Notes under the pieces: model-generated
The model's database searches: none
What the model was told of the DNA's origin: nothing
The model's input: the letters and a program-made list of their open reading frames with translations, nothing else
Program-made: the position numbers and the translations under genes
NCBI GenBank assembly: GCA_963705505.1
Contig: CAVPJU010000006.1
Coordinates: 192,001-256,000 of the forward strand
Source of the DNA: an uncultured bacterium
GTDB taxonomy: Bacteria; Desulfobacterota_D; UBA1144; Nemesobacterales; UBA2774
Direction: 5' to 3'
DNA length: 64,000 nucleotides
Part shown: one piece after another, positions 17,715 to 48,570 of the stretch
Layout of the letters: every line of letters starts with the position of its first letter
Position numbering within the stretch: position 1 is the stretch's first letter

Positions 17715-18326
17715 TTATGATAAAGCGGCGGAGATGTGAACAAGATTGGCAAGAAAGTGGAAAATAACGCTCGCCCAGAGCGTTCCCGTGGTCATATAAA
17801 GATAGCCCATAACAAGGGAAGGAAAGAATGTCAGGACCGCCTGAGAGCACACGGGAAGTCCGTGATCACCCCCCAGACATAATGTGACGAAATGTCCGAG
17901 CGCGAACAGGAGACTTACGGCTATTATTCCCTTTATCGTGTTCCCGAGCCTCTGCTGTAGGTATCCTCTGAAAAAAACCTCTTCCGGGAGAGCCACGAGC
18001 AGGAGCTGCATGAGTATGAACGAATACGAGAGCTTGTTGAACGCGAGCGTCTTTCCGGAATACAGACCGTATCCCGCGAGCACGGCTATATAGATAAGGA
18101 GAATTACGATCGAAACCGCTATACCTACGATCACACCCCTTAAGTCCCACCTGAGGTCGCTCATATCGGTCTTGAGAATAAACGGCACCGACAGCATCAG
18201 AACAGCGGAAAGGGAGATTACGTAAGGCCATGGGATGAACAGCTTCATAAGGAAGATCAGGGATATGAGGGCAATATAAATAATTAATGGTCGCAGGTAG
18301 TTACGATGAATCAGTTCTCTTTCCAT
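17715..18326 (-). CDS. CPBP (CAAX protease-like) glutamic intramembrane protease, myxosortase/JDVT-CTERM protease-like
   Basis: PEEVFFRGYLQ, FALGH, TFFPSLVMGYL..TG.L...FHFLAN motifs in a multi-TM protein. Confidence 0.85.
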   Translation of the reverse strand: MERELIHRNYLRPLIIYIALISLIFLMKLFIPWPYVISLSAVLMLSVPFILKTDMSDLRWDLRGVIVGIAVSIVILLIYIAVLAGYGLYSGKTLAFNKLSYSFILMQLLLVALPEEVFFRGYLQQRLGNTIKGIIAVSLLFALGHFVTLCLGGDHGLPVCSQAVLTFFPSLVMGYLYMTTGTLWASVIFHFLANLVHISAALS

Positions 18327-18393
18327 TTAGTGGGTGCCGAAATGCAATATTGAAAAATCTAACGCGTAAAAATACATAACACGGGATATGAGG

Positions 18394-19626
18394 TCAATAA
18401 AGCTTGTACCAATCGAATTTGTTCAGAAACAGCACTCCCCACAGGTTGACCAGCACGCTTAAGATAATCAAGGCCTTGTGATACCATTTTAGTTCCTCGC
18501 CGATACCCTTAAAAGTCAGAAGAAGAATGAATGGGTAAAAATCCAGGGCGTACCTGTACCCGAACTGCGTCCATCCGGTCCCGCTTTTAATAAATATCAG
18601 AAATGCCGTGGGTATGATTGCCGACCAGCAGGCAATCGAGAGCCTATTCCTAATCCCTGCAAAGAGAGCGAATATGAAAGCGGGCGTCGTGATAAGAACC
18701 GACAGGCCGACCTTCGAAGGGATAACATACGGCCATTTATCTATGAATACGGGGGGCTCGAGTAAAAAAACCCGAAGGTGATAGGGGATATACGAGAAGC
18801 TGAATAGCCCCTTGTTAAACCATGGCGATACTCTTTCCTTTGCCGGAGAAATCGAATGCAAAATGTATGCCGCGTCGTACGGCGAGCCGAACCGGAGGTA
18901 GTTATATATAAAGTTCAGCAGTATGAAAATACCGGCTCCGGCGCAAAGCAATATAACCGGTCTGAATCTGGCTTGCCTGAGCAGCGACACCTCATCCTGC
19001 ATCCGGGGCAAGCTGCCGGTAAGCATAATTATGAAAAAGGGCAGGGTCAGGATCGTCGGCAATCTCGACCAGTATGAGGCTCCGAGAAGGAGACCGATCA
19101 AAAAAGGGCTCCGGCCGGTGAATGTCCCGTATACGGCCAGCAGCAGAAATGTCATGGAAGTAATTTGAGCGAAGTACCATACGGAGCCCACCGTGGCCGT
19201 GTACCAATGGATGGTCCCGAATCCGAAGAGAACAGCCATCCAGACCCGGATATCCTCATTCTCTGTCAGCCTCTTCATTATCAGGTATACAATTGATATA
19301 TTGATACCGCCCAGAAAAAAGGACAGGAACACCTGCTTGAATTCGATTCCCCATAGGGCTATGAAAGGCATAAGCACGATTGCCGGCATAGGAGGGTAAA
19401 TTTCGTAAGATTTACCGCCCCTGACTATGAGCTCTTCGAAATAAAAGGGTGTATCCGTCACGTATAGTCTTCCGTGGAGAAAAGCGTCGGCGAGATAATT
19501 GAAATAATTAAAGGGATCGTGGACCACGGGCTGCGTGAATAAATAAACCAGGATACCAGTTATACAAAGGAGGGCGGCGGTGATTAAATGGGAATACCCA
19601 TTATATATCCGGGAATGGATTTTCAT
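18394..19626 (-). CDS. Multi-pass membrane protein, putative GT-C glycosyltransferase (paralog of 23256..24473)
   Basis: About 10 hydrophobic segments, LADAFLHGRLY, YPPMPA, YNYLRFG, QFGYRYALDFYP. Located in a glycosyltransferase cluster. Confidence 0.65.
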   Translation of the reverse strand: MKIHSRIYNGYSHLITAALLCITGILVYLFTQPVVHDPFNYFNYLADAFLHGRLYVTDTPFYFEELIVRGGKSYEIYPPMPAIVLMPFIALWGIEFKQVFLSFFLGGINISIVYLIMKRLTENEDIRVWMAVLFGFGTIHWYTATVGSVWYFAQITSMTFLLLAVYGTFTGRSPFLIGLLLGASYWSRLPTILTLPFFIIMLTGSLPRMQDEVSLLRQARFRPVILLCAGAGIFILLNFIYNYLRFGSPYDAAYILHSISPAKERVSPWFNKGLFSFSYIPYHLRVFLLEPPVFIDKWPYVIPSKVGLSVLITTPAFIFALFAGIRNRLSIACWSAIIPTAFLIFIKSGTGWTQFGYRYALDFYPFILLLTFKGIGEELKWYHKALIILSVLVNLWGVLFLNKFDWYKLY

Positions 19627-19742
19627 AAAGTGTATCGAAGCGAGTATTCAATATTTCCGAATATTAGATTAACATAATATACGATATCTCCAGTAAATAT
19701 CAGCAAAATGTCCAGATACATGACGCAGACCGCCGGCGCGAA

Positions 19743-20846
19743 ATGAAGCTCAACGCTACCCTGAGAGAGTTGTCCCTGATAGCCGTTATCTCGATAATCG
19801 GGACTTTCATTGTCGCTTATGCAGCATATGTGCTCCTTCAGGACAAATATCCCGATTCCATAATTTCGATCTGGAACGTATGGGATACACACCACTATAT
19901 CGCAATCGCTCAATACGGTTATACGAGCTCGACGGTCGATGAAAGAAACCTGCAGATCGTATTCTTTCCGCTCTATCCCTATACCGTTAAAATATTTTCA
20001 ATAATATTCAGAGATTATATACTGTCCGCGCTCCTCGTATCGAATCTCGCGTACGCAGGAGCTGTCATTTATCTCTTCAAACTTGTCAGGCTCGATTACG
20101 AGAGCGAAGACGCGTTCAGAGCGGTGACATATCTATCCATATTCCCGACCGCATATTTCCTCCACGCAGCTTATACCGAGAGCCTGTTCATAATGCTCAC
20201 CATAGCCAGCTTCTACTATGCAAGAAAAGAGAATTGGGCGCTTTCGGGACTCATCGGAATGCTGGCTGCGGCGACACGGGTTACCGGAATTATTCTGCTT
20301 CCCGTACTTGCAATCGAGTACCTGAATCAGAAAGGTTTCAAATTAAGGAATGTCAGAAAAAATATACTCTGGCTCTCGATTATTGCTCTCGGCCTCGTTT
20401 TTTATCTGGCAATAAACTATATTACGTTCGGGGATCCGTTTAAGTTTCTGGAAATCCAAAATGAACATTGGTCAAAACACCTCGACTTCCCCTACAAGGG
20501 ATTTCTGGACGCGTTGGGGAGCATATTCTATAGGACTCCCCGTGACGCCGTGACTGCGGGATGGGGTGAAATAACATTCGCTATACTCGGCCTCGCACTC
20601 ATCATCTATTCATTTTTCCGCATTCGCCTTTCGTACAGCCTATATGCACTGGCAACCTGGCTCTTTGTAACATCGACCTGGTTCTGGCTGAGCATCCCCC
20701 GATACACCCTATCGATGTTCCCGATCTTCGTTGCACTCTCGTTATTGGGCAGACGGAGGGAGGTAAATTATCTGGTCATATTTATATCGCTTACACTTTA
20801 TATGCTCTTCCTAGCACAATTTATCAGGTTCGGCTGGGCGTTTTAG
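19743..20846 (+). CDS. PIG-V/Gpi18-like mannosyltransferase (GT-C)
   Basis: WDTHHYIAIAQYGY, FFPLYP, FPTAYFL.A.YTESLF, ATRVTG, S.PRY. Confidence 0.8.
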   Translation: MKLNATLRELSLIAVISIIGTFIVAYAAYVLLQDKYPDSIISIWNVWDTHHYIAIAQYGYTSSTVDERNLQIVFFPLYPYTVKIFSIIFRDYILSALLVSNLAYAGAVIYLFKLVRLDYESEDAFRAVTYLSIFPTAYFLHAAYTESLFIMLTIASFYYARKENWALSGLIGMLAAATRVTGIILLPVLAIEYLNQKGFKLRNVRKNILWLSIIALGLVFYLAINYITFGDPFKFLEIQNEHWSKHLDFPYKGFLDALGSIFYRTPRDAVTAGWGEITFAILGLALIIYSFFRIRLSYSLYALATWLFVTSTWFWLSIPRYTLSMFPIFVALSLLGRRREVNYLVIFISLTLYMLFLAQFIRFGWAF

Positions 20847-20864
20847 AAATAACTGTTGATGACT

Positions 20865-22121
20865 TTATTCGGATATAAGGATTTTAGGAATCGGAAAACC
20901 TAACAGTTTGCAGTTTGTCCGTTCCCATTTGGAGTGGTAAATATCACGTATCAGATATGACAACAAGTACGCATACGTGAGCAAATTTATTGCTGCGATG
21001 GTTATCGTAAAAAAAGTTACTGTACCGGGATTGTGAAACAGTGAGCCGTAGATGCGCTCATAAACCACAAACATATTTAAAAAATATGTCACTGATAAGA
21101 TGACATACACATACAAATACTTTCTTTCATCCGCGAGCGGGACCAATAAAGCCAAAAAAGGTATGGCCCAGAACATATATCGCTCATGTATACGCGTGAA
21201 GAAAATAAAAAATGTCAGATAGATAAAAAATGACGCGAAACACAGCGACCGGAAACTGAATCTATATTTCCTGATATAAATGTTTAAAAGAACAGACACC
21301 AAGAGATAAACCAGAATTCCAAAATATTTGGGTATAACAAGAAAATAGAAATTCGTGTCGAGCGGCGAATCATACCACTCTCTTGTCCAACCGGACCAGT
21401 TAAATAACCACCAGAAATTATATGCGTTTACGGTGATATTCGGAAAAGAATTAAAAGACCCGACAAAGACAACCTTATATAGGGTTACAATCTCCGGCAA
21501 GAACGGCAGTAAGATGACCGTCGAGGCGATCACAAAAGATATGATCAATTTCAGAAGACCGTCCGTTCTAAAGAGTATTGGAGCCAGGATCACCCCCTGG
21601 AGCTTCGAGAGGATCGATAGGGCATAAAATACACCCTCTTTGTAACTGTTGTAATTGTATATTGTCAGCAGAAGAAATAATGCAAGAAGCGGGTCGTCCC
21701 ACTTTCCCCAAAATGCCGAATCAAAAATAATAGCGGGGTTGAATAAAAAAACCGCCATGCTTATTAAAGGAGCGTTTTTTAACAGACCCTCACCGTCGAG
21801 CTTCCTCTTAGACGCTATGTAGATAGTTACGGATATGAATATATCCGCAATTGTGCCCGGCAGCTTTACAATTAGAAAACTGTAATTCGGGAATTTCATC
21901 ATCGGGTAGCTGATAAGATAAAGTATGTATACAAACACCGGGGGCAGATTGCCCTCGGTATTTGTATAGAAGTGAAAGAGACCTTTATTATATAAGGACT
22001 CCGCCCATGATTTGTGTGTAAAAACATCCACCACAAAACCCGGATTCTGAGAGACGAAGAGGCGAATTGACAGGCCTAAAACAAGCAATAACGCTACTAA
22101 TATCGTCTCTTTTTTGTTCAT
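20865..22121 (-). CDS. GT87/Gpi18-related membrane glycosyltransferase (GT-C)
   Basis: D...H.SW, PP...Y, KLP..IAD, FNPAIIFDSAFWG.WD, KLQ, NAYNFW, RIHERY. Confidence 0.7.
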   Translation of the reverse strand: MNKKETILVALLLVLGLSIRLFVSQNPGFVVDVFTHKSWAESLYNKGLFHFYTNTEGNLPPVFVYILYLISYPMMKFPNYSFLIVKLPGTIADIFISVTIYIASKRKLDGEGLLKNAPLISMAVFLFNPAIIFDSAFWGKWDDPLLALFLLLTIYNYNSYKEGVFYALSILSKLQGVILAPILFRTDGLLKLIISFVIASTVILLPFLPEIVTLYKVVFVGSFNSFPNITVNAYNFWWLFNWSGWTREWYDSPLDTNFYFLVIPKYFGILVYLLVSVLLNIYIRKYRFSFRSLCFASFFIYLTFFIFFTRIHERYMFWAIPFLALLVPLADERKYLYVYVILSVTYFLNMFVVYERIYGSLFHNPGTVTFFTITIAAINLLTYAYLLSYLIRDIYHSKWERTNCKLLGFPIPKILISE

Positions 22122-22540
22122 GGAGAAAGGCGTGACTTCAGTACTATAGCATAAGAAAGATATTATACATATCAACCGGTTGTACAGCGTAAATAAGTAG
22201 CCTCAAGCTCCCTCATTTCACGCCGGAACGCATGGGATAGAGAGGTCAATCAGGAATCTGGCTGTCTCCCGAGCTTGTTAAATCCAACATTTAAAGAGAG
22301 CCGTGGAGCTTGATTTAGAGTGCTGACTCTATCATCTTTTTTCGCCCGAAATCGCTTCGAGGCTCGTTACTTACAACCCCGACTTCCACGGCGGACCTGT
22401 ATGCGGGGCCAAATGACCTCAGTCCCTGAAATGTACGGCGAAACAAAGCCAAAAAAAAGCGTTTTCGCATTTGCAACCAACCAGACCCAATGAATATATA
22501 TTTCATTATAATTAAATGATATTATAATTGGCGCAGGAAT

Positions 22541-23233
22541 ATGGATATTACGCTGGTCATACCGACATATAACGAATCCGAGAATATACCGATACTCCTT
22601 GAAAAGGTATTCGGGGTATTCAAGGAGTCGAATCTCGACGGCAACGTAATCATAGTGGACGATAACTCCCCCGACGGAACCTGGAAGATCGCCGAAGGAC
22701 TAAAGGAAAAATACGCCCGGCTCGAGGTATTGAGGAGGCTCAACGAAAGAGGCCTATCCTCAGCCGTCCTACACGGCTTCAGATCATCGAAAAGCGACAT
22801 ACTCGGGGTCATGGACGCGGATTTAAGCCACCCCCCCGAAAAAATACCCGAGCTCGTAGAGCCTATAATAAAAGGGGAAGCGGATATCGTCATAGGGAGC
22901 CGTTACGTCGACAGAGGTGAAATAGGGGACTGGGCCCTGCAAAGAAAGATTTCCTCCAAATTGGCGACCCTCGCCGTAAAAGGACTAACGAATGTCAAAG
23001 ACCCGATGTCTGGATTCTTCTTCCTGAAACGGGAAGTCATAGAGGGCGTCGAATTGAGCCCGAAGGGGTTTAAAATAGCGCTTGAAATTCTAGTTAGAGG
23101 CAAATACCATAAAGTTGTGGAAGTACCCATATTATTCAGGGACAGGATTTACGGAGAGACGAAGTTAAACAGCGGGGTAATCTTCGATTATTTTTACCAC
23201 GTCGTAAGGCTATACGCATATAAGATTTTTTAA
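22541..23233 (+). CDS. Polyprenol-phosphate mannose synthase (DPM1-like GT2)
   Basis: IPTYNE, VDDNSPDGT, GLSSA...G, MDADLSHPP, GSRY, DPMSGFF, F.DR..G.TKL. Confidence 0.88.
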   Translation: MDITLVIPTYNESENIPILLEKVFGVFKESNLDGNVIIVDDNSPDGTWKIAEGLKEKYARLEVLRRLNERGLSSAVLHGFRSSKSDILGVMDADLSHPPEKIPELVEPIIKGEADIVIGSRYVDRGEIGDWALQRKISSKLATLAVKGLTNVKDPMSGFFFLKREVIEGVELSPKGFKIALEILVRGKYHKVVEVPILFRDRIYGETKLNSGVIFDYFYHVVRLYAYKIF

Positions 23234-23255
23234 ATCGCAGAAAATCTGAATCGGA

Positions 23256-24473
23256 ATGGATAGCGGGAATTCGGGCTCAGACAGCCGCAAGATCGTATTA
23301 CTCATTTTTCTCATAACATTCGCGGTATCCTTCACGGTATACTTTTTCACACAGCAAGGCCCGCCCACAAAGTTTAACAATTTCGTAAGACTCGCCGATG
23401 CCTTCCTGCACGGCAGGCTTTATCTGACGCATGGCGTATCGTGGCTTGAGTTAGCTCCGTTTCAAGGCAAGTACTATATTGTTCCCCCTCCCTTTCCGGC
23501 GTTATTAATATTGCCTGTCGTCGCCTTATTCGGCCCCTCGACGAATCAGACCCTGATATCGATATTCTTCGGCGCCCTTAACGTCTCACTCGCTTTTCTG
23601 GCCGCGAGAGCTCTCTCGGAGAACAGGAGCGTTCAGGTTTGGACCGCCTCCATGTTCGGATTCGGGAGTATCCACTGGTGGGTCGCGACTGCGGGCGGAG
23701 TCTGGACGTTCTCACACACCGTATCGGCCACACTGCTTTTTATTGCGATCCTGCTGACCCTTTACAATTATCACCCTTTTTATACGGGAGCCTCACTGGG
23801 AGCGTCTTACTGGACCCGTCTCCCGACAATACTTTCATTCCCGTTCTTCCTTGTCATGTACTCGGACGAAAGTCCTATTCAGGGAAAAACCCCCGGCTTT
23901 TTTCAAAAGATACATGTTAGACCCTTACTCTGGCTCGGAGCGGGCGCCGGAATATTCATACTCTTAAACGCGGGCTATAATCTGCTCAGGTTTAATACTC
24001 CTTTTGATATCTCCTATTATCTTATACCGGGCATACTCGATGAACCGTGGTACCAGAAGGGGATATTCGACATCACGTATATTCCGAGACATTTAAAAAT
24101 CATGTTCGCGGGCTTTCCGAGGTTTATAGACGAATTCCCCTACGTCACCCCCTCCTGGCACGGGATGGCGATATGGATCACTACGCCCGCGTTCGTATAC
24201 TCATTTTTTGCGGGCATAAGAAACAGGCTCGCGGCAGGATGCTGGCTCTCCGTCGTACTCATAGCGCTTGTGAATTCCTGCCACGGCACGTGGGGGTTTC
24301 AACAGTTCGGATATAGATTCGCAATGGACTTTTATCCGTTTCTATTTCTTTTGACGGTGAAAGGTATAGGGAATAACCTGAAATGGCATCATAAGGTTCT
24401 GATAATAATCGGTATTCTTGTAAACCTGTGGGGAGTACTCTGGATAAACAAATTCGGATGGGTCGGTTACTGA
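23256..24473 (+). CDS. Multi-pass membrane protein, putative GT-C glycosyltransferase (paralog of 18394..19626)
   Basis: LADAFLHGRLY, PPFPA, LGASYWTRLPT, QFGYRFAMDFYP, VNLWGVL. Confidence 0.65.
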   Translation: MDSGNSGSDSRKIVLLIFLITFAVSFTVYFFTQQGPPTKFNNFVRLADAFLHGRLYLTHGVSWLELAPFQGKYYIVPPPFPALLILPVVALFGPSTNQTLISIFFGALNVSLAFLAARALSENRSVQVWTASMFGFGSIHWWVATAGGVWTFSHTVSATLLFIAILLTLYNYHPFYTGASLGASYWTRLPTILSFPFFLVMYSDESPIQGKTPGFFQKIHVRPLLWLGAGAGIFILLNAGYNLLRFNTPFDISYYLIPGILDEPWYQKGIFDITYIPRHLKIMFAGFPRFIDEFPYVTPSWHGMAIWITTPAFVYSFFAGIRNRLAAGCWLSVVLIALVNSCHGTWGFQQFGYRFAMDFYPFLFLLTVKGIGNNLKWHHKVLIIIGILVNLWGVLWINKFGWVGY

Positions 24474-24474
24474 T

Positions 24475-25092
24475 CTACTTTTTAAAAACCAAAAATTTAT
24501 AGCCGAGGAAGTTCCAGATAATTACAATGATAATGGATGCCAGGCTTGCTATGTTAGCCCATAAAACCGGCGAAATGCCGCCAATGGGTCCTATCACATT
24601 GACTATAAATGATGCTACCAGGACATTGAGTGCAAAACCTATAGCCGATACGATAATGAACATAATAAACTGCTTCCCCATACCGTCCCTTTCCCTGCTT
24701 TCGAAAGTCCAGTACTTATTCCACACATAACTATTCGCCACCGCAAATAGGAATGAAATAGCCTTGAAGACCGAAAACATGTACCCCTTATGGACACCGG
24801 TGATAAACATAAGAAAGTTTAGAATTCCGAAATCTATTGCCGTATTCGATACGCCTATCGGTATGAATTTCCCGAATTGAAAAAGAACATGCCACTTGGT
24901 ACCGGCGTGTGAGGATACGTATACCCAAAGAATGACGAAGGCCGGGATAATTATCAGACAAGCGGGCCATAGAAGATTATAATGCATGTCCTGGATGTGC
25001 AGCTCACCCTTGAGGGTACTCAATATCGCAATAGCGAAAATCGCAATAATGATACCGAGTATTACGGAAACCGTTACATCAGATTTTTTCAT
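24475..25092 (-). CDS. GtrA-family flippase-like protein with an N-terminal membrane extension
   Basis: QFGKF..IG.SNT.ID, NSY.WNKYWTF, WNF.GYKF.VF. Confidence 0.85.
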
Positions 25093-25173
25093 TTTAAGAT
25101 ACGGAACTCCTCAAGTTGAATTCCCGATATGGAGTTTAAAGCAATGACTACTATACATTGTATGCAGATTATA

Positions 25174-26499
25174 TTATCTCCAGGTGCTCAACCACATGTA
25201 ACGGTCGATATCCAGCTCCCTCATCGGGACCGCGGCAAGAACAGGGTAAAAATAGAAAAACATGCCTCCGGCTATACAAAAATATATAATTACGAGTATC
25301 TTGCCTCTCTTAGAATAATTCCATAACTCGTTCAGAAAATAAGTGATTACCAAAAGTAGAAATATTAACGAGGGAAGAAAATGATAAAGGAATACAATCT
25401 TTCTCGGCGAGAACGCCCAAGGGAGCCAGTATGCGAATACGCTCAACACGGCGAATATAAGAGTGGGCGTTTCTTTCCTCACTGCCTGGACTATGCCCAG
25501 AATTAAAAACAATATACCCGTATACCATATGAAGAGATTCCCCATCAGGTAGATGTGCGCCCGCCATCCTTGTCCGAGGTCCTCGAAATAGAGGTACACG
25601 GGTCTCAACATCAGAGGCCACTGCCACCATGACGACTGGTAAGGATGCGTCTCGGTCACCCCTTCGTGATACCCCAGCATATTACCCTGAAGAATGAAGA
25701 AATCCCGGATCGAGTTACCATGATAGAAAAAGGGCAGATATGTAGCCATGTACACGAGCAGCGGAACAACTATAAACGCCAGCGTGAATCTCGGGAGGAT
25801 CCTTATAACGGATGCGATAAATTCCTTATCCCGGGACTTCGCGGCGTATACCTCGAAGTAATACATCAGAAGGAGTGCCACGCCTGCCAGGTATTCCGTG
25901 ATGTATACCCCGCTCCACTTTACGGACATTCCGGCACCGCAGAAAAATCCGGTCAAAATCAGGAATATATTCCTCCTGGTCCTTGCGTATTTCACGATGA
26001 AGAGAGACGCGAGGATCAAAAAGTCGGCAATAAAAATATCCACCATTGTAATCCGGCTCAATACGAATAAGAATGATTCAAAGCCGAATAAAATGGCGGC
26101 GATCAAACCTGCCCCTTTGCTTTCAAATAAATTTTTTCCGAGAAGATAGATAAATAGTATTCCCAACCCGCCGAATATGGCTTGAAAAAACCTCCATCCG
26201 AATGTGTTATCGCCGAAAATCAATATTCCTACTGCGCTTATCTCCTTACCCAGGGGCGGATGAGTCCATTCGAAAGCCATCTCTTCAGGCGCCTTGGAAG
26301 TGCTTTCCCAGGCGGCTCTATTACCTTTTGCCATCTCCTGCGCCGTGAAGGCGAAGTAAACCTCGTCAAAATAATAGCTATCGGGGATTTCCAGCCTGTA
26401 AAGCCTGATACAGATTCCGAATATCAGTACAAGAACCAGAAGAAACTCAACTTTGTATTTCAGGAGATAGGATTGCAGCGTCATATTTCTAAACGTCAC
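25174..26499 (-). CDS. Protein O-mannosyltransferase-like (PMT/GT39)
   Basis: YFDEVYF, HPPLGK, FGWRF, SRI.M.D, KWSG, HPYQS.WW.WP...RP, FLYHFLP. Confidence 0.85.
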   Translation of the reverse strand: MTFRNMTLQSYLLKYKVEFLLVLVLIFGICIRLYRLEIPDSYYFDEVYFAFTAQEMAKGNRAAWESTSKAPEEMAFEWTHPPLGKEISAVGILIFGDNTFGWRFFQAIFGGLGILFIYLLGKNLFESKGAGLIAAILFGFESFLFVLSRITMVDIFIADFLILASLFIVKYARTRRNIFLILTGFFCGAGMSVKWSGVYITEYLAGVALLLMYYFEVYAAKSRDKEFIASVIRILPRFTLAFIVVPLLVYMATYLPFFYHGNSIRDFFILQGNMLGYHEGVTETHPYQSSWWQWPLMLRPVYLYFEDLGQGWRAHIYLMGNLFIWYTGILFLILGIVQAVRKETPTLIFAVLSVFAYWLPWAFSPRKIVFLYHFLPSLIFLLLVITYFLNELWNYSKRGKILVIIYFCIAGGMFFYFYPVLAAVPMRELDIDRYMWLSTWR

Positions 26500-28527: not shown

Positions 28528-28549
28528 GGGAGTAAATACACCGTCGGGC

Positions 28550-32653: not shown

Positions 32654-32668
32654 GATTATATAGAAAAA

Positions 32669-34546: not shown

Positions 34547-34561
34547 ACACAGTTTTAACTC

Positions 34562-36708
34562 TTATTTCTTTCTTCTTCTAGCAGCTCTCACTCCGAAAGC
34601 AAACGCTACAGGTACCAGAGGTATAAGTACGTTAGCAAATGCCGTTCCGAGCTGTACCGGGTTACCGGCGATCGCACAACCGCCGCCGCCGCCATGTTTG
34701 CTAGGTTTAATAGTCGGTCCGATCGTCGGAGACGGTCCGATCGTCGGAGACGGTCCGATCGTCGGAGACGTGCTCGCCGGAGTGAAGTCGTCACTGTTTG
34801 GCACATCTGCATCAATACCCAGTCTTGAGAAGCATATATTCTGGTTACCACAGCTCTGGGGATGTTCATCTAAATCCCATACAGTAGAAGCTACATTAAC
34901 GAATGCTGCCAGCGGGGTGTACGATGGACTGTACACATCTCTGAAGTTGATGTTCACTACATCAGCTCCAGAATTGTCACCTGGTAGCGTATTAAACTGG
35001 CCCGCAAAGAATTCAGGCGTATAATCGAGGAGAAATGAATTCACACCGTTAAGTACACTATACGGTGGTATGAAAACGTCGTCGATAATCCCTCTTTGAT
35101 CACAGATAATCATCGAACGCTAGTAGCCTGAAGTTATCAACCAACGCACCATTTGCGGGATGAACATCATCGGGATCAGTACCACGGTTGGAGTACTACA
35201 TTCAGGAGTGGCTATCTGACCCGTAAAGACAACAACTTGTTGATCCTCACAGAATTCGCGAAAAGACTATCATGTATCAAGGATCCCTTACCACCCACAA
35301 TTTCAACCGGACCGATAGCATAAGTATCACCATCAGTACGAATCTTATCGCATGTGCTTACCACCCGGGAAATCTTGTGAATATACAAAGCCTGTACCAG
35401 TGGCATTGTAACAATTGCAATCGACGAATTCATTGGGAAAGGCATCCAGATCAACAACACAAACAGCCGTGTAATTCTGCGCAACCAAACTCATCATCTG
35501 GATTGAGTACTTGTATATCATATTCTACCTGATTATTACCAAATGACCTGATCTGTAGTGAACGAATTCGACGCAAGAACTGTTACATTCGTCTCTGTTC
35601 CTAGATTAATAACTTGTGTCAGCCCCCCCAGGATTTGCATAGGGCAAGCTGTTGCCCATTATCAGTATTAGAACCATCCGGGAATCTGAACGGACCACTT
35701 GTCGCAACACTCGGGTCTGATGCAACGAATGCCTGGAAAAGATCGGAATCAGGATCTTGACAGTCAGGATTTAAAATATCATCACATGGTGGAGGAGCAA
35801 CCGCGGTCTGAAATTCCATTTTTATCTATAAACCCAAATAGAAATGAACTCCGTTGGTGATAACGTTAAATGGAGAAGTAAAGTGACCACCATGGAATCA
35901 ATTCGATCGAAATAAATCCGCCCTGAAAACTTCCGTTTATCAATCAAGTTCTCAACTACCGGAAGACAAACACCAAACCTAGCAAACGTATTCATATCCA
36001 TAATCGAACACTTCTTTGCGCATCATTGATATAAGCTGTACCCGCAAGGAAGTTATAGTCAATAGCCTGTTTGTCTTCGCAATTGTTTACAACAGTAAAG
36101 GTTACGAAACCCTCATGTCCCTGAAGAACAGAATCATCCGGTGTATCCCCAACGTTTGTAACCAAGTCGCCAAAGTTATAAACGTGTGTATCACCCGAGC
36201 TGTATTCGTCGCAGAAGTCTCTGATTTCATTGCAATTTTCATCCAAAATGACAACATGAACGTCTATAAAATCGAAATCTTCTGCATTCGTCAGCTGAAG
36301 GAATGTATTTCTACCATCTTTTTGAGTCCACCACGAAACGAGTTGAGCTCCCGTTACGTTGCTGGGATGTGTAAACTCAAAGAAATCAAAACTCCTGAAT
36401 ATATTACTTATTAAATCACCCTGCTGATCTATCACTATCTGGTCTAACGCATTTGGAGAGAATCCATGTTGCCAGTCCATACCTCCGATGTTTTCACCGT
36501 TATGAGCTTCAACAGTGCCAATCAACGAGCCAGAAAAATTCGGAGCTGGGTCCAAAGGCGTAACAACCTGTTGCAACCAACCGCTATCAACCTCTACCCC
36601 AGGACACCATAGAGGGCCCTCTTGCCCCTGTGCTTTGTTTTGGAAACCAAAACCCAATAGGACAAGCAATATTACCGCAACAAGGGAATACTTAAACTTG
36701 CTTATCAT
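34562..36708 (-). CDS. Secreted acidic surface (S-layer-like) protein with a C-terminal Cys-containing sorting signal, fragmented by several frameshifts
   Basis: AAGGAGG RBS, signal peptide MISKFKYSLVAVILLVLLGFGFQNKAQG, collinear fragments 35992..36708, 35619..35819 and 34562..35113, ending (SPTIGP)3-KPSKHGGGGGC-hydrophobic-RRRKK. Confidence 0.75.
34715..34770. repeat. 18-bp perfect tandem repeat CGGTCCGATCGTCGGAGA x3, encoding SPTIGP repeats on the minus strand
   Basis: Directly visible in the sequence. Confidence 0.95.
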
Positions 36709-36832
36709 TTGTTTATCCTCCTTTTTAAAATTTATCAACTTAACTGATGTCATTATCTTTATCCTTAGACTCGTTATTCTATTTTCTGCCATATCTATTT
36801 CATTATACGCTCGTGGAGTTAACTCCCTGGAT

Positions 36833-38024
36833 TTACTTTACTGATTCTAACAACGCACAGTTTGAGTTGTTAGTATTAAATAAGCAATACGAATAATCGT
36901 ATATCAGCTCACTAACTGAAATCCAGGAATCCATCGTGCCTGTGCCATCACCGTTGTTTAGACCCAAAAATCCCGCAAAATATGTGGGGAACTCACATTG
37001 ACCATCAGCTGGATCTCCTGAGACAGCTACGTCAAAACAGAAATTCCCATCAAACCCTAACAACAACCATCCGGAATCAGTTGTCCCCACAACCGAATCA
37101 CCATCTAGTTTTGATGTAGCGCATATTTCGTCAGCTCCCCGGCTGTTAGGCACCGAATGGTCAATACCTTTATTTAACTCTGTCGGTTTTGTGTTATCAC
37201 AAGTGAAAAACGTTGGACTGCACGAATTAAAATTCTCATCATCGTCGAAAATTAAATTCTGATCAAAAGCATCTATTCCACCGAATTGAGTTCCTACAAA
37301 TGGCGACGCGTATGTATTACCATCTGGCAAAGCTACATAGGTGATACCAACCACGTCTGATAGGTTGTTGTCAGTCACAGCATTAAAGTTCAAAACGTTC
37401 CAGAGTTCATTTTCAATAAAACTACCCTGACCAACCCCAATTCGCAAGCCATTAAAAAGGGATTCTGTATTTGCAGCATTTGTTCTGTATTCATAACCAG
37501 CTTTATCGATTATTCTGAACATACCGATCAATGGCCCAGCGAAATCATTCGAAGATACAAGCCTTGTTTGCGCCCCTCCGGTAGCCAAAGGAACATCATG
37601 ATTACACTCAGGATTTGTAGGCATAAACTGGATAATTATCAGATGTGATTGTAATCAATCCAAAGCCGTCCGCCGCTAGAGAACAACCTGGAAGATCTTT
37701 TGCGTCGTACACGTTTGAATCGCCAGGAGTCAATTTTGCATCGAAATCACATTCATCGCACGAATCATTTGCATTAAATATCTGCACGTGAATGAAATGC
37801 GTATCTTCAGACACATTGGTAACCTGAAAAATTGTATCTCTGTCCCGGATGTCCCAATAATATACCAACCTATAAGCACCCGTATCCGTTTGATCTACTG
37901 GTTCAAAAAAATTGAAACGAGTCAAAAGTGGACTAACGCCCGCCCCAGCATTTCTCATCGGAATTAATAATATCAACGCAAGTACAAATAAATACTTAAT
38001 CTTGCAAAAACTATCCTGTAGCAT
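36833..38024 (-). CDS. Secreted Cys/Asp-rich protein, paralog of the downstream surface protein, one frameshift near 37620
   Basis: Signal peptide. Shares the motif LV.(Y/W)W....R.T..Q.TN......(I)HV.I....C.E.D......GD..VY with 34562..36708. No C-terminal anchor. Confidence 0.7.
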
Positions 38025-38223: not shown

Positions 38224-38299
38224 GACCTTTTCTCCAACTTAATTTCTGAACTACTTGCAGAAGTAACATTACTCCATTTCCTCCCTTAAAAACAAATAA

Positions 38300-38328
38300 A
38301 TTACATCACAAATTATACGTCTTGTCAA
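38300..38328 (-). promoter_or_regulatory. Second putative sigma70 promoter, 105 bp upstream of the first
   Basis: Same hexamers and spacing, TTGACA-N17-TGTAAT, in the same GTCTTGACAA context. Confidence 0.6.
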
Positions 38329-39256
38329 GACATTTTGACCGTACAAAGGAACGATATAATGCAATAGTATAAACAATCTGGTATTCAGAGCCCCGGAGAA
38401 AATATTTCAAGACGGATAACATAATATTTAAATTGGAACCCAAGCCATGGAAATCTAGCGGCTTCGCCCCCGGCCGGGTCAAATCCAGTCTAAAGGGCTC
38501 CGATCTTTTAACTAAACCCTCTTTCAACGATTGAGATTCATAAAATTGTGAGATTGCAGCTGATTAGCCTCGCATAACACTTATACCGGGGGGGTCTTAT
38601 AGCTCAAGGTCCCAGTTTCCTCTAAAAAAACCGTTTCCGGACAGATCCTCTTAAAAACTCCGCTATCGAAGCCGATATAACTCTGAGGAGGATCACTTCC
38701 CCAGTAAGCGTCAAAACCTACGCAACAATACCAGACTGGGTTTTTCAGACAAGGGTCTACAGTCCGGTAAAGCAAACTATATCACAAGCAGGAAGCATAA
38801 TAAAATCGCGCCTCCCACATCATCCCCTCCTGAGTTGCCCCAAGATATAATTGATGCTGAGCCGCTCGAGACTTTTACAGCCGAGTCCCTGCCATAACCC
38901 GGGGTCGCCATATTGATTTATTATCCGGCATTATTCAGCCCACCTTAACAAATAACAGCTCATAAGGGGAAAGGAACATCTCCATTAATATATATCAAAT
39001 CCTCTATATATTACATATATAAGAGGAGGCAAAGGCCAGAATTCAGATACCAGAATTAAGTAAATGAACATTTCTCAGAAAATCTGTTAGAATTATATAT
39101 TTATTGTCATGAACAGCCAGTCAATTATTTCGAATGCCGACCAGATCTTCGCTTTGGCTTTAAGACCGGGAACGTGCAGATGAGGTCAATTTGATTGCCG
39201 GTCTTCATGATGTGATAATATCAAAAAACCAACTAAGGGATTAAGGAGAAAGAATT

Positions 39257-42229
39257 TTGAATAAACTTCCGGAAAGGGCTAAAAAACTCTTCATACTAAC
39301 AGCCGTCCTCGCCTCCCTCACATACATACTCCTTTTCACGCCGGGCATTGTCGGTTTCGAGCAGAGGGCCGAAGCAGACAACCTGAATATAACAGACGCA
39401 GTCATGCAGTACGTTAAGCGCTACTACGTCGACAAATCGGTCATCGACCCGAAAAACATGCTTATTCTGGGGCTCGGGAGAATGGAACAGATCGTGGACC
39501 AGGTCATGGTGAATTTCCCCAACGGTGAGAACAGCACCGAATTTGAGGTTCAGGCCGTGGGCGATAAAGCCGAATTCAATCTGAGTGGCGTGCAGGACCT
39601 CGATGACGTTACGGACCGATTGGAACAGGTATTCCAGTTCATCTCGCCCCATTTAACCTCAAGCGACCCCAAGATAAACGATATCGAATACGCAGTCCTC
39701 GATCAGATGCTTAACTCGCTCGACCCCCATTCGGGAATAATAACCCCCCAGGTATACAAGGAGTTTATGATTGAGACCGAGGGCAGCTTCGGCGGACTCG
39801 GGATAGTGATCGGCGTAAGGGACGGGAACCTAACAGTGATATCCCCCATCGAAGGCACTCCCGCTTACAGGGCAGGAATAAAACCAAACGACAAAATAGT
39901 ACAGATCGCGAGCGAATCCACGATAAATATGTCCCTCATCGAGGCCGTAAGCAAACTGAGGGGGCCGAAGGGAACCGAAGTATCCATACACGTGATGAGA
40001 GAAGGCTTCTCCGAGCCCAGGGAATTCAAAATGGTTCGGGATACGATAGTGATAGAGAGCGTCGAGACTTTCGAGCTCGAGGACGGAATCCAGTACGTAA
40101 GAATCAGAGACTTTCAGAAAAACACGCTCGACAGCATACTTCAAAACCTCGACAAGAACGGTCCCTCAAACCCGAAGGGCATCATACTCGACCTGAGAGG
40201 AAACCCCGGCGGACTGCTGGATCAGGCGGAAAGGATCTCGGACCTGTTCCTCACGAACGGAGTGATAGTCACGACAAAAATCGGGAATTCAGCTAAACGG
40301 TATCACGCAAACGACAAGGACCAGCAATTCAGCGGCAATATCGTCGTCCTCGTCGATTCCGGAAGCGCGAGCGCTTCCGAGATCGTAGCGGGCGCTTTGA
40401 AAAACAACGAGAGGGCAATCATAATAGGGGAGAGGACATTCGGCAAGGGGACGGTTCAGCAGATATTCGACCTGAATGACGGCTCCGCGCTCAAGCTTAC
40501 AATCGCGCAGTACCTCACTCCCGGCGATATTTCCATACAGGATGTCGGTGTGACTCCCGACATCATGCTCCATCCAAGTATAATCACCGACGATACAATA
40601 GTGTTCCATCCGCATTCCGATAACCAGCTCGTCGAAAAGCCGTGGAAGAAGAAGGAAGCGAAAAATCAAAATCGGTGTCCTCGAAATGCCGGAATATTCG
40701 ATCACTTACCTCGATAATAACGCTGTCGTGAAGAACAACGGCAGCGACGAAGATGATCACTGCCCCCGAAGAAACTCTTAGCCGTGAGGAAAAGAGGAAA
40801 AAGCTCGATGAAGACTTTTACGTAACGCTGGCCCGGCAAATCATAGACTCATCGACAGTTCCCTCGAGGAAAGAATCGCTCGGGGAAATCCAGGGAGGAA
40901 TCGCCAAAATATCCAAGAGCGAAGAAGACAAGATAGTCGACAAATGGAAGCTCATGGGAGTCGACTGGTCGAATGAGAAGACAAAGCCCGAAAAGCCTTC
41001 GCTCTCGGTCAGTGTAACGCCGGAAAATCCCTAAGGCGAATGCCGGCAGCAAGATCGATATCAACGTGGAGGTGGACAACAAGGGCCGTGCACCTCTATA
41101 CAGACTCATGGCGACCACAAAATCGGAAAACCCGGTCTTCGACGGCAAAGAGCTTATTTTCGGCAAGGTAAATCCCGGTGACAAGAGGTCCTGGAAAACG
41201 ACTTTCGAAATACCGAAATGGAGCCTTACCAGGGAGGACACAGTCACTCTGAAATTCGAAGACGGAAACGATTCGCAAATACCCGATTACAATTTCACCG
41301 CCGATACATTCGGCCTCGAGAGACCCCTCTATTCGTTCAATTACGAGATAGTGGACGACGGCAGGTACGGATCGAGCGGCAATGGAGACGGAATAGCGGA
41401 ACCCGGGGAAGTCATAGTATTCCACGCGAAGGTGAAAAATATAGGCCGGGGGGAATCGGAAAAAACGATCCTTACGCTTAAAAACAACTCGGGGGATAAA
41501 ATCTACCTCGAAAAGGGAAGGGCGGAGTTTAAAAACCTCGCGCCGGGCGAGACCAGAGAGGCCGCTTTCACCTTCGACGTGAAAAATACCGATACCCCGC
41601 TCGATCTGGAGCTCCAGATAGTTGACGACGTCTTCAAGGAAGGTCTAATCGGGAAATCGGTCGTCCCGGGAAATACAGACGGCTCGGTCTTCGTAAAAAA
41701 AGAATCCAAAGTGACGGTGCCTGATGCCGGCACGCCCATCAGGGGTGGAGGCTATAAAGAAGCCCCCATAATAGCCTTGTCGGAAAAAGGCGCTACATTC
41801 AGCGGCCTCGGACAAAACGGCAATTGGGTAAAGATAAAACTCAATGAAAATTCAGCAGGCTGGATAAACAAAAACAAAGTAATCATTTCCGAACCCTCAG
41901 TACCGGCCCAGCCGTCCGGCGGTCCCGCGTTCAAGGAAACCTTCGAGGCTCCTCCCGTCATCAGCGTCAAGGGAATGCCGGTCTCGACAACATCCAAGAC
42001 GATTACTCTCAACGGAGACGTTAACGACAAGGACGGCATCGAGCTCGTATCCGTTTTCATCGGAGATGACAAGGTCGCGCTTCTGCCGTCGACAAAGACA
42101 GATGTGCCAATGTCTCTGAAACTGAAACTGGACAACGAAGTGAACCTCATTACGATCGTAGCCAAGGATTCGAAGGGACTCCTCTCCAAACAATCCTTCG
42201 TGGTAAGAAAAGAGGACCAACAAGGGTAG
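39257..42229 (+). CDS. Long S41 (C-terminal processing) serine protease with PDZ and C-terminal beta-sandwich/SH3-like domains, split by two frameshifts
   Basis: LDPHS, GGLGI, GTPAYRAG, LDLRGNPGGLL, SASASEIV, TFGKGTVQ, A.YLTP. Continues in ORFs 40753..41034 and 41066..42229. Confidence 0.88.
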
Positions 42230-43167: not shown

Positions 43168-43169
43168 AT

Positions 43170-44758: not shown

Positions 44759-46725
44759 TCAGTAGTTCATATTAGTTTCGTTCTGAATCGATTTCGCTTC
44801 GTTTATAATTTCAGGATCAGCAGTAAATTCGAGAGCTGCTCCAGCCTGCTCCATGGCTTTCTGTCTGTCTCCGAAGGCCAGATAAAGCTTAGCAAGAAGG
44901 ATATTCGCTTGGGCAAATCTCGGGTCGTATTTAAGCGCATTCTTGAGCGAGCCCTCTGCAAGCCTGTATTTATCGACGGATTTCTCACGAATTGCTTCTG
45001 TGAAATATATCGACCCCAGAAAATAATGAGCCTTAACGAGTCCAGGGTCTTTGTCGAGCGCTTTCAGGAGATACATCTTTGCATTCTCCGGATCATTTTT
45101 TTTATAAGAAATAAAACCCATATAAAAATAATACTGGCTCCGCATACCCAGGGCTATATTCAAGGGCCGCCTTAAACCATTTTTCAGCTTTTACGAAATC
45201 TCCTTTAGCAATATATGCGATGCCGAGTCCATGTGCGGCCATAACTCTGCCCCTGTAATCACTATCAATAGCTGGACTCAGCGCCGTTAAGAACTGATTT
45301 ATGGCCTCATCGGTTCGTCCTGTTGACTCGAGCGCTTCACCATACCTTAACTTTGGGACAATCTGATCAGGGGATTTCCTCACAGCCGCTTCCCAAAACG
45401 TGAGTTCGTCCCTCCAATTCTCTTGCCCCTTTACAATTACAAACAGATAAGACACGCACAACAATCCCCCGATGACCCAGCTCAGCCATTTTTGTCCGAT
45501 CAAGCTACCCGCCCTCACAAGCAAGTACCCTACGAGCATGCAGTAGCCCGCCGAAGGCACGTAAACGAACCTCTCGGCAAAACGTGTTATCGCAAGCGGA
45601 TATAAAGCGATAATTACGGCGGGACCGAGAGTCGCGAAAATCCACAGGAGCGAGAAGGCGGAAACGTTCTCCTTTTTCCTTATCGAGATCACGAAAGCCG
45701 CGGTAACAGCAGCCACGAGCAATAGCGAAATAATTATGTGCGACGCGTCTCCGCCCGCAATAGTCCCAATGAAGTGGTTTAAATCGTATGGGAAGAGCAG
45801 TTTCTCAATATAAAATAGATAAGTCCCAAGAAAAAGGGTTATGAATACCTCCGGGGCCAGTAAATCTCCCCTGTCGGGTGTGAAGCCGCTTATCACCCAG
45901 CAAGCCGGAAAAATTCATTATAGACCCGAACCTGGTGTAAAAGTAAAAAACGATCAGAAGAGCGATCATCAGGTACTTGAAAATACTGGCGCGTGCATAG
46001 AATCTCCTGCTGATGAGGTCAAAGCCGAGGATAATGATGGGGAAAGAAAAAGCGACCTCTTTAGAAAGAAATGAAAGATAAAAACAGATACCTGCCAAGA
46101 TAATGAAAAGAAACTTTCTATAGGACATGATATAGAAGATAAGACATAACAGGAAGAACATCGCCGCAAGCAGATCGCCTCTGGCGGCTATAAACGAAAC
46201 CGATTCGACATGCAGCGGAAATAGGGCAAAAAGCATGGCCCCGAGGAACGCTTCGCTCTTTCCGCTCCCCCTATTAAATTCCTTAAACAGGAGGAGAATC
46301 AGGAAGAAAAGCAGTACCGTAGACACGGAATGCAGAACTGATATTGGTCAGATGAAATCCGAACGGGGATACGCCCCAGATCCTGTTATCTATGACGAGT
46401 GAAGCAAAATAGACCGGCCTGAAATACTTGTCTGTGCTTTGCATTCTTCGACCTTGAGGGGACTAATCAGCTTGAAATCCAGATGGGAGGATTTGAGATT
46501 TGGGGCCCAAGTTTTGACATAGGTAATATCGTCCCAAACGAGGCCGTTTCGGAGTGAGGGAATAAACACTGAAAAAGAAACCAGAAATAATAACGCGGCA
46601 GCGAACGCCCTGTGCATTAATATTCGTTTGATTCTTCCGTCAGCCAAGCCCCCGCTTAGGGAAGGCCCGGCGGACCGCCTTTCCGCAGGCTCCTGTTTTG
46701 GTTTTTTTCTTTTCCTGCTTGCCAT
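44759..46725 (-). CDS. TMTC-like membrane glycosyltransferase with C-terminal TPRs, fragmented by frameshifts
   Basis: NGLVWDD, FALFPLHVESVSFIAARGD, SKE, AERFVYVPS, W..ELTFW, then TPR repeats, across four ORFs. Confidence 0.75.
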
Positions 46726-46786
46726 ACTTTTAATTAAAAACCTTTGTTATTGAAATAGGAATTTTCTCCGCACTAATGAACCGGGT

Positions 46787-48570
46787 TCAATCCGTGGATT
46801 CTATTATCCTCCCGGCTTTTTGAGCCAATGAATCTGTGAGGCCGCTATTCAATGGCAAGCCTTGCGTTCTCCCTCGCTTTTTCTCTTTCCCCGAGCTCTA
46901 AATTCACCATGGCAAGCAAGAGATATGCTTTGCCGTACGAGGGGCGGATTTTTAATGCATTCGTTATATACTTTTCCGAGGTCCTGAAATCCTCCGGCGA
47001 CCCGCCTGACTTTCCCTTTTAAATAGCTGACAAGCCCCAGGTGATAGCTGGTCTTATAATATCCGGGATCGTATCCGTAGGCTTTGAGAAACCATTTTTC
47101 TGCGTTAGGGATATCCTCCTTGCTAATATACACAACGCCGATATTGTTAGCTGTCACCGACCTTCCGGTGTCATTGATTTTTACGCCTTTGTCGAAATTC
47201 CTGAGAAGCTCCCTCAAGGCTTCGTCATCCCTGCCGGCGTCGAGGAGAGCAATACCGTAATTTATACGGGGAATAGAGCTCAGAGGGGACTTCTTTACAG
47301 TATCCTCCCACAAGGTTAAACCGTTTTTCCACGCTCCCTGCCGATCGACGGTAAATAATAAATAGGAAGCCGCCAAAAGAAAAGCTAACGCCAGAGAAAC
47401 CTTTTCTTTCCCGACGCTCTTTCCCAGGTGAATGAGGGCGCATCCGAGGAGCAGGCAAAAACCGGCTGACGGTATGTATAAATACCTCTCCGCTACAGGC
47501 GTCGAGGCGATATCGGATAGAGCTACGAGGGCAGAGGGGAAAAGCGTGACCAGTATCCAGATCAGAGAGAACCCGGCTACGTTCTCCCTCTTCATTATCG
47601 AATATAATACCGAAAGCGATATGAGGAAAAATACTATAATCGCGGAAATTATATATAGCGGCCCGCCGGGCACCGATTCGATAAAGGCGTTAAATTCGAA
47701 TGGGAAAAGGAGCTTCGAGAAATAATAGAGATATGAAACAAGCATGACTTTTATTACTCCCAGGAGCCCGGCTGCACCGCCTGCGCCCGCGGGACCAGTG
47801 ACCTCGCTCAATACCCTCATTTGCGATAGCTCCGGGAAATTTATAAATCCCCTCCCCCTTAAATAAAGGAATAGCGCAAGAAGGCACGCATACACCGCAT
47901 ACCTCGCTATACCGGCCGGCCTCCACAGCCTCCGGCTCAGAAGATCGAAAGCCAGGGCCGCTAACGGAAATACCACCGCCACCTCTTTTGACATGAGCGA
48001 GAGCGAAAAGCTGACCGCTGTCAGGAGGATGTAGAGAGGATTCCTCAATGAAAGTATATGGAATATAAAAGCGAGGAAGAAGAAGAGGGCGCAGAGCACA
48101 TCCGGTCTCCCTGAAACCCAGGATACGGACTCCACGTGCATGGGGTAAAAGGCAAAGAGGATGCCGGCAATAACGGCTGCCGTATCTTTTCTTTCGAATT
48201 TGAACTCCCCGAGCAGAAGAAGGACTAACAAATAGAAAAAAACCGCGGAGAGGGCATTGAAAACGATGTTGCTCAGATGAAAGCCGAAAGCCGAAACCCC
48301 CCAGATCCCCTTATCCAGAACCATAGAAATATAAATCAGGGGACGGTAATAGAGAGCCTCCTTGTTTTCCGCCGGGGGAGGCACGGTTATAGAGCCTATC
48401 CTCGATGCATTGAGCGCGTAGTAGCTGTTTTCAATAGTCTCCACGTCGTCCCAGACGAATTCGTTCCTCAGGGAAGGAATATAGACCCCCAGAGCAATGA
48501 GGAAAAAGAGAAGAGAAACCAACCACCTTTTCCGCAGGAAGCTCACTAATCTTACCTCTCGGGAAAGCAA
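46787..48570 (-). CDS. TMTC-like membrane glycosyltransferase with C-terminal TPRs, frameshifted near the 3' end
   Basis: NEFVWDD, YYRPL, FHLSN, FAFYPMHVESVSWVSGRPD, SKE, AERYLYIPS, WKNGLTLW, TPRs. The alternative frame ends ...GRIIESTD-stop at 46787. Confidence 0.8.

Follow-up and report, generated by a model that had tools for sequence, protein, structure and literature searches.

We analysed a 64,000-nucleotide stretch of DNA, hereafter the window, which comprises positions 192001-256000 of contig C6 in a 2.88-Mb, 10-contig genome (G000) of Candidatus Dadabacteria. The window encodes a 203-residue CPBP (Rce1-like) glutamic intramembrane protease (17715..18326, reverse strand), which probably acts as a sorting enzyme by clipping a C-terminal tail with a cysteine from three of the proteins that this bacterium secretes, one of them encoded in the window itself. 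The proteins would be left held at the surface, probably via a lipid on the cysteine. Judged from sequence, the core of the predicted system is the pair of protease and tail, a new variant of the published myxosortase-type system that the NCBIfam models do not capture. Because the pair escapes the current models, its clients are annotated merely as 'hypothetical' or 'S8 peptidase'. The set of proteins on the surface of an uncultured bacterium depends on its sorting signals, and the tail-protease pair spans at least three phyla: Dadabacteria, Nitrospirota and Planctomycetota. An earlier note on this DNA had proposed one pathway of tail cleavage, lipid anchoring and glycosylation encoded within the interval 17715-48570. 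Its observation is largely right; its interpretation is right in the core and wrong in extent.

The CPBP protease and the cysteine tail

The window was annotated from a listing of open reading frames (ORFs) together with Pfam and NCBIfam scans. The CPBP protease claimed in the earlier note is present, with a PF02517 match of 72.6 bits, and its catalytic motifs EExxxR (E115, E116, R120), FxxxH (F141, H145) and HxxxN (H190, N194) are invariant across 15 orthologues. The comparison with CTERM and myxosortase models that the note recommended gave a divided answer: the NCBIfam models that match the protease best all belong to the myxosortase group (MrtP at 81.3 bits, Mrt_core at 76.7, MrtC at 65.0 and MrtS at 58.4), and all of these scores lie below the cut-offs. 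Against Mrt_core the two further CPBP genes of the genome reach 21 bits or give no match.

The candidate signal consists of a poly-Gly-Cys motif, a spacer of 10-14 residues, a Pro-containing membrane helix and a terminal RRRKK. In the window it reads ...KHGGGGGC AIAGNPVQLGTAFANVLIPLVPVAFAFGVRAARRRKK, occupies 34565-34708 and closes the ORF 34562-35113 on the reverse strand, after an SPTIGP repeat; it scores 73.4 bits against our tail profile A6. The last ~40 residues are nearly unchanged among the orthologues of the window gene (CAIAGSPVQLGTA.ANVLIPLVPVAFAFGVRAVRRRKK); the Pro/Thr linker upstream of them varies freely. Across 24 aligned tails from Dadabacteria and Nitrospirota the cysteine is invariant, and the glycine at position -2 and the proline of the helix are each conserved in 90% or more.

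The tail occurs as a transferable module on proteins unrelated to one another. A regular-expression search followed by a profile scan of all six-frame ORFs recovered three carriers in the genome: the broken window gene (34562-36792, reverse strand), a 661-residue S8 subtilase with a TPTPTPPP linker (C1:175264-177249) and a 424-residue protein (C10:612567-613841). Among relatives the tail is also carried by additional S8 proteases, a MopE-like protein, a beta-helix/DUF11 protein and a Cache-domain protein. Just ahead of the cysteine, family f1 and genomes G027 and G036 have Pro/Thr-rich stalks of 25-40 residues. Divergent tails in G015, G031 and family f8 escaped a narrow tail profile (A1), and the broader A6 was used for the counts given below. 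Tail matches are more numerous in some relatives: G032 (2.0 Mb, no PMT gene) has 54, those listed lying in ORFs of ~825-836 residues spread around the chromosome, and the one such ORF scanned (L083:3194-5671, 825 residues) is an S8/P-domain protease; G011 has 17-24 matches, mainly in tandem copies of the novel all-beta, ~650-residue family of the window gene.

The pairing of CPBP proteases with cysteine tails has been published as the myxosortase family (10.1101/2023.06.07.544157; PMC11980579), and for this part the statement in the earlier note that the combination was undescribed does not hold. For the remainder it stands: our literature search found no paper linking CPBP/Cys-tail sorting to GT-C glycosyltransferase (GT) genes or to Dadabacteria, and the main text of the preprint (10.1101/2023.06.07.544157) mentions neither Nitrospirota, Dadabacteria nor subtilisin. 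According to the cited sections of PMC11980579, MrtX cleaves MYXO-CTERM in Myxococcus xanthus and in Escherichia coli, and the cleavage is Cys-dependent; the MYXO-CTERM helix is described in the preprint's main text as having no Pro or charge, with GCGC frequent (10.1101/2023.06.07.544157). The pair studied here resembles the MYXO-CTERM system with MrtX, MrtC and MrtP of Myxococcota and Bradymonadales in its tripartite tail with an invariant cysteine, helix and Arg-rich end, in its varied clients and in the best-matching CPBP family. It differs in its single cysteine, which follows a Gly run, in its long spacer and the proline of its helix, in an enzyme of 203 residues that scores 76.7 bits where the Myxococcota-type ones score 103-145, and in three clients as opposed to the dozens of M. 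xanthus. With JDVT-CTERM/MrtJ of Pseudomonadota it shares the single cysteine, the few clients per genome and, in its Nitrospirota and Planctomycetota relatives, an enzyme encoded beside its client; unlike JDVT-CTERM it has no DP motif before the helix, and its MrtJ score is 36 bits against a cut-off of 75. A proline inside the helix, invariant in Synerg-CTERM (MrtS, Synergistota), is common to that system and ours, whereas our tail is the longer one and its spacer (GTAFAN) is conserved. Archaeosortase ArtA/PGF-CTERM sorting and glycosylphosphatidylinositol (GPI) anchoring are functional parallels only, in that glycosylated surface proteins exchange a C-terminal helix for a lipid anchor: their enzymes are unrelated (a Cys protease or a transamidase) and transpeptidation-like chemistry is proposed for them, whereas a two-step route with separate lipidation would apply here.

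Co-occurrence of protease and tail across phyla

We surveyed 120 Dadabacteria genomes, scoring a CPBP orthologue as a match to profile A2 at E≤1e-15 and a tail as a match to profile A6 at E≤1e-3. The orthologue occurs in 85 genomes and the tail in 89: both are present in 83, neither in 29, the protease only in two (G005 and G054) and the tail only in six: five f1 genomes that are fragmentary, and G073, which is 90% complete. The 23 genera (of 32) with the protease are also those with the tail, and both are lacking from families f3, f6 and f9. Family f2 is mixed: G025 (2.0 Mb, 99% complete) has neither, and its sister genera have the two together. In several genomes of family f8 a tail protein of ~436-440 residues is encoded 3-5 kb from the protease; the f8 neighbourhood reads BirA-CPBP-ATPase-NadE-Cache protein with tail.

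The nearest CPBP proteases outside Dadabacteria are those of Nitrospirota, at 36-52% identity; their top NCBIfam match is MrtS, at 66-79 bits (cut-off 130). In seven of ten Nitrospirota loci (L110, L111, L113-L116 and L119) the protease gene adjoins that of a lipobox-bearing S8 subtilase with the tail GGGGGCS[IV]G.RQN.P.AFAD..LL.PL...RRR. Three Planctomycetota loci (L144, L154 and L163) encode large tail proteins directly upstream of a myxosortase-like CPBP, with the tail variant GGGGCS[IV]S...F.LPYIGL...RRD.R. The claim that protease and cysteine tail belong together is thus borne out both by the profile over the 120 genomes and by gene adjacency in seven Nitrospirota and three Planctomycetota loci.

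As a control we followed IPTL-CTERM, the other tail class of the genome with 22 matches. It occurs in 36 of the 120 genomes, is nearly confined to family f1 (31/32; 0/37 in f8) and does not track the CPBP protease; on this distribution we reject the idea that the protease sorts the 22 IPTL-CTERM proteins. The IPTL-CTERM tail has the form PTLSEWGM...RRR, examples being C9:28132-40478 and C10:547809-548624.

A second Lgt paralogue follows the pair. The genome has two Lgt genes, at C6:747280-747996 (outside the window) and at C10:803670-804386; the latter is followed by an ORF of 558 residues. At least two Lgt matches (PF01790) were found in 81 of the 83 genomes with both protease and tail, and a single match in 26 of the 29 genomes with neither. 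A quick tree was built from 35 Lgt sequences after three long-branch rows had been removed. A branch with 95% SH-aLRT support sets 13 second copies apart from every first copy and from all eight single copies, and the copy at C6:747280-747996 groups with the second-copy clade. By these sequence comparisons the second paralogue is the best candidate for the lipidation of the cysteine, though only a lead. In the cited sections of the myxosortase papers the enzyme that modifies the cysteine is left unnamed, with Lgt as the leading candidate (10.1101/2023.06.07.544157; PMC11980579), and the distribution of the second Lgt offers a testable candidate for that step.

We propose that the tail proteins would be exported by Sec, with the tail helix holding them in the inner membrane. 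The cysteine would then be modified by a separate enzyme, for which the extra Lgt paralogue C6:747280-747996 is the best candidate; the CPBP protease would cut behind the cysteine, and the protein would be transferred to the surface.

Several points weigh against this proposal. The evidence for cleavage by the protease comes from sequence comparison, and lipid anchoring of the cysteine is, in the cited sections of PMC11980579, only a proposal even for MrtX. Every NCBIfam myxosortase match of the protease falls below its curated cut-off, including Mrt_core (NF040914), at 76.7 against 100 bits. The same holds for related enzymes: among 34 CPBP proteases from other lineages scored against Mrt_core, and in Dadabacteria, the ranges are 56-77 bits in Dadabacteria, 50-71 in Nitrospirota and 79-91 in Planctomycetota, all below 100, whereas 15 Myxococcota-type loci pass, at 103-145 bits. 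Because its score is below the cut-off, unlike those of the Myxococcota-type enzymes, the protease is by the curated test a non-member of the myxosortase family, yet no family appears to fit it better. No NCBIfam CTERM model matches the tail at its cut-off: JDVT-CTERM (NF033191) covers only the Gly-Cys start (model positions 1-11) and reaches 12.4-14.2 bits (cut-off 27), and neither the MYXO-CTERM (TIGR03901) nor the Synerg-CTERM model gives a match at E≤10. In the window the distance from the protease gene to the tailed gene is 16 kb, a stretch that includes housekeeping genes, and the tailed gene is broken. The co-occurrence is broken by G005, G054, G073 and the five fragmentary f1 genomes, and because the genomes are kin the two-by-two table may come down to three or four independent events (gain or loss in f9, f6, G025 and f3). 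The Lgt pattern has exceptions as well: G026, G034 and G053 lack the system yet carry two copies (G034 and G053 being incomplete genomes), and G088 has the system with one copy. Although an approximately unbiased (AU) test rejects the single copies joining the second-copy group (p 3.6e-7), the group tested was defined after a first tree had been seen.

The glycosylation block and alternative explanations

Between the protease gene and the broken genes at higher coordinates lie nine glycosylation genes (18394-28527). The two GT2 genes and the GtrA gene claimed in the earlier note are there, at 22541-23233 (forward), 27811-28527 (reverse) and 24475-25092 (reverse). Neither GT2 protein has a predicted membrane segment; both show likeness to polyprenol-phosphate sugar synthases at sub-threshold scores. 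The eight GT-C enzymes of the note are broadly confirmed by Pfam, hhalign and AlphaFold/Foldseek, with one of them in pieces; all are polytopic, with 7-12 predicted hydrophobic segments and a long first loop with acidic residues. The clearest is a PMT/GT39 protein (25174-26499, reverse; PF02366 at 85.8 bits with a cut-off of 22.7, PMT_4TMC at 84.3 with a cut-off of 32.4), whose loop 1 reads ...YYFDEVYF... with an acidic DE motif and which scores 99 bits against the NCBIfam Pmt equivalog cut-off of 800. A forward-strand gene at 19743-20846 passes PMT_2 and PIG-V. Two GT87-like genes (20865-22175 and 26496-27830, both reverse) are paralogues of each other (99.7% in hhalign on orthologue alignments); PF09594 gives 20.7 bits for one (cut-off 25) and nothing for the other, and GT87 is found in 12-46% of the members of 23 of their 30 Atlas neighbour clusters. 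The genes 18394-19626 (reverse) and 23256-24473 (forward) match no Pfam family and are likewise paralogues (100% in hhalign). The AlphaFold model of the former (pLDDT 77.4, pTM 0.84) has GT-C-fold structures at all of ranks 1-46 in a Foldseek search of the PDB (probability up to 1.00, TMq 0.32-0.53), among them AglB, PglB, ALG3/9/12, ArnT, Pmt4, PimE, AftB/D, Emb and the GT-C-like PIG-U, and on this modelling the predicted fold of both paralogues is GT-C. Sequence-profile searches of these two families against PDB sequences returned no match. Two GT-C genes with TPR repeats stand apart from the block, at 44759-46728 (reverse, four pieces in three frames) and 46849-48570 (reverse, a weak PMT_2 match). 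Taken by its sequence matches, the block probably encodes a glycosylation pathway of its own in the periplasm, with polyprenol-phosphate sugars as donors and O-mannosylation as the likely reaction. It resembles actinobacterial O-mannosylation (a Ppm1 GT2 with a Pmt GT39) in the synthase-like GT2, the PMT with PMT_4TMC and the Pro/Thr-rich candidate acceptors, and differs in adding seven GT-C genes, GtrA and a second GT2.

The earlier note also named a foldase and a C-terminal processing protease, and both genes exist: a PpiC-type rotamase at 31877-32653 (forward) and, from 39257, a long S41 peptidase of the MXAN_5808 type (39257..42229, forward). The latter is one ORF in relatives; a 1003-residue reference maps onto the window in three frames, and TIGR03900 matches two pieces at 508 and 248 bits. 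Their place in the pathway is not borne out. The S41 peptidase occurs in 117 of the 120 genomes, families without protease and tail included (f6 6/6, f9 18/19), and is a general gene, not specific to the system. PpiC pairs with a Tat-signal gluconate-2-dehydrogenase-subunit-3-like protein (32669-33193, forward), the two genes being co-directional and 15 bases apart.

We weighed how far the glycosylation genes belong with the sorting genes. That the protease, the tail proteins, the GT2, GtrA and GT-C enzymes, PpiC and the S41 peptidase form one dedicated pathway which cleaves, lipid-anchors and glycosylates tailed proteins is, in our judgement, quite unlikely. Synteny speaks for it: the order CPBP, GT-C block, FG-GAP, GMC, PpiC, dehydrogenase subunit, ThiI, Tail and Par (the untailed partner described below), continuing to the S41 peptidase, is kept in 12 of 13 f1 loci, the block order recurs in G040 and G036, CPBP, GtrA, PMT(-like) and GT2 genes stand side by side in two f4 genomes (G027 and G033), and protease and PMT are at most 15 kb apart in eight of 15 f7 genomes. 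Strong PMT orthologues moreover turned up solely in protease-bearing families, and a Pro/Thr-rich stalk is common among the tail proteins. Descent alone would, however, produce synteny within a lineage, and the wider distribution speaks against a single pathway. PMT matches (E≤1e-5) occur in 47 of the 120 genomes and in 0 of the 36 of genus g14, where the protease is in 35 and tails are in 36; there are none in G032 (99% complete) or G015. In G032 the protease gene is directly followed by S41-OppB-TruA-FAH-GT-C/TPR-LeuB-Mfd, so that the GT-C/TPR position is kept with no block between, and G015 retains only NadE-CPBP-GtrA-ThiI. At 55 CPBP loci outside Dadabacteria (L110-L164) no match to the window GT-C proteins was found at E≤1e-5, L147 alone giving a weak GT2a match (25% identity). 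ThiI sits inside the block, the S41 peptidase is near-universal, and Pro/Thr stalks are present in the PMT-less G032 and missing in G033. Because the block is missing in g14, in G032 and in the non-Dadabacteria loci that keep the protease, it is a lineage-restricted neighbour of the sorting genes, and the sorting system can do without it. Neighbourhood analysis thus upheld the earlier note for protease and tail and not for the GT-C genes; a long stretch of envelope genes whose order is kept in one lineage need not equal one pathway.

A looser tie, in which sorting is independent and the adjoining block O-mannosylates the Pro/Thr stalks, among other exported proteins, in PMT-bearing families, is doubtful but a real possibility. 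It would fit the PMT/GT39 membership by Pfam with the DE motif in loop 1, the two soluble GT2 enzymes and GtrA, which suit the synthesis and flipping of polyprenol-phosphate sugars, the 25-40-residue stalks ahead of the cysteine in f1, G027 and G036, and the position of the block beside the protease in four families. The block may decorate the stalks, but stalk composition does not separate genomes with PMT from those without it; also, actinobacterial PMT enzymes act on many secreted proteins. An elaborated form, likened to the display of GPI mannoproteins, would have the extra Lgt lipidate the cysteine, the CPBP protease remove the helix and the block mannosylate the Pro/Thr stalk in PMT-bearing families; we consider it unlikely. 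The tail might instead be a permanent C-terminal membrane anchor and the protease an unrelated housekeeping enzyme, their shared distribution stemming from descent and from genome reduction in f6 and f9. The protease gene is indeed always beside NadE or GltB, a housekeeping neighbourhood, and the families without protease and tail have small genomes of 0.8-1.6 Mb. This explanation is nevertheless very unlikely: protease and tail genes are independently adjacent in Nitrospirota and Planctomycetota, the 2.0-Mb, 99% complete G025 is devoid of protease and tail although its sister genera have the two, the invariant cysteine, Gly run and spacer are conserved beyond the needs of a simple anchor, and the cited sections of PMC11980579 provide an experimental precedent in MrtX. 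Sorting of the tailed proteins by the CPBP protease, with the block as a neighbour, is the reading we retain.

Gene order, the tailed protein and frame interruptions

The window runs from GltB and NadE through the protease and the glycosylation block to FG-GAP/ASPIC (28550-30139, reverse, broken), a GMC oxidoreductase (30120-31807, reverse, broken), PpiC, the Tat-signal protein and ThiI, and then to the tailed protein, its untailed partner Par, a 1.2-kb gap, the long S41 peptidase, OppB, TruA, an FAA hydrolase, the two GT-C/TPR genes, LeuB and Mfd. By Pfam, the housekeeping genes ThiI, OppB, TruA and FAA hydrolase are interspersed in the interval 17715-48570. The gap between the partner and S41 genes (38025-39256) has no ORF above 73 residues, and Rfam and tRNA scans of the window gave no match there or elsewhere in it.

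A tailed protein with an untailed paralogue had been claimed. The tail and the SPTIGP linker are as described; an intact gene is not, as both genes are split, and the paralogy extends over only ~77 N-terminal residues (34% identity, E 6e-8). The C-terminal piece of the tail-protein gene (34562..35113, reverse) carries the SPTIGP linker, GGGGGC, spacer, Pro-helix and RRRKK; the N-terminal piece (35992..36792, reverse) carries the signal peptide with a start at ~36708, and 35114-35991 is the disrupted middle. The intact 671-residue orthologue of G007 aligns by tblastn with residues 1-453 in frame -2 and 508-671 in frame -1. In relatives the orthologues are intact at 637-684 residues, those of the same genus being single ORFs of ~670 residues. 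The structural model of the protein (pLDDT 81.9) is all-beta over residues 44-590, with a disordered stalk and a helical tail; a Foldseek search with it returned only generic beta-sandwich matches (TM ~0.1) and no nameable fold. The family has 78 relatives at E≤1e-5, of which those with a named source are Dadabacteria-type metagenome-assembled genome (MAG) records and three have a Pfam match.

Par (36833..38024, reverse) is split at ~37608-37624 into 37608-38024 and 36833-37624; its gene and that of the tail protein make up a conserved cassette of two, and the Par-Tail pair is seen again in G027, G030, G033 and G036. The FG-GAP/ASPIC, GMC, PpiC and Tat-signal subunit genes adjoin Par/Tail genes apart from the protease in G027 (L080), G033 (L078), G036 (L082) and G038 (L077), and are a module that travels with Par-Tail cassettes across several families.

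Six genes are broken in the assembly: those of the tailed protein, its partner, the S41 peptidase, one GT-C/TPR protein, the GMC oxidoreductase (four pieces) and the FG-GAP/ASPIC protein (at least four pieces). We mapped the breaks by aligning intact orthologues from the same genus or family onto the window with tblastn. Homopolymers were checked and explain none of the breaks. Contigs from four public sequencing runs could be placed on 28500-38100; they left 34599-35882, in the middle of the tail gene, uncovered, and the best run contained only 0.15 of the sampled words. All four runs are without one window base at 30532, and the window likewise has a single extra base at 29303 and 29018, relative to two runs in each case, and at 29201 relative to one. 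These four sites are the exact frame junctions of the GMC and FG-GAP genes. Because four breaks coincide with a single extra base relative to the public-run contigs, the frame breaks are most likely indel errors of the assembly, or else very recent changes.

The G+C content dips to 0.36-0.45 over 28000-40000, which covers the FG-GAP, GMC, PpiC, ThiI, Tail and Par genes, compared with 0.50-0.55 in the flanks. The genome also encodes two secretins.

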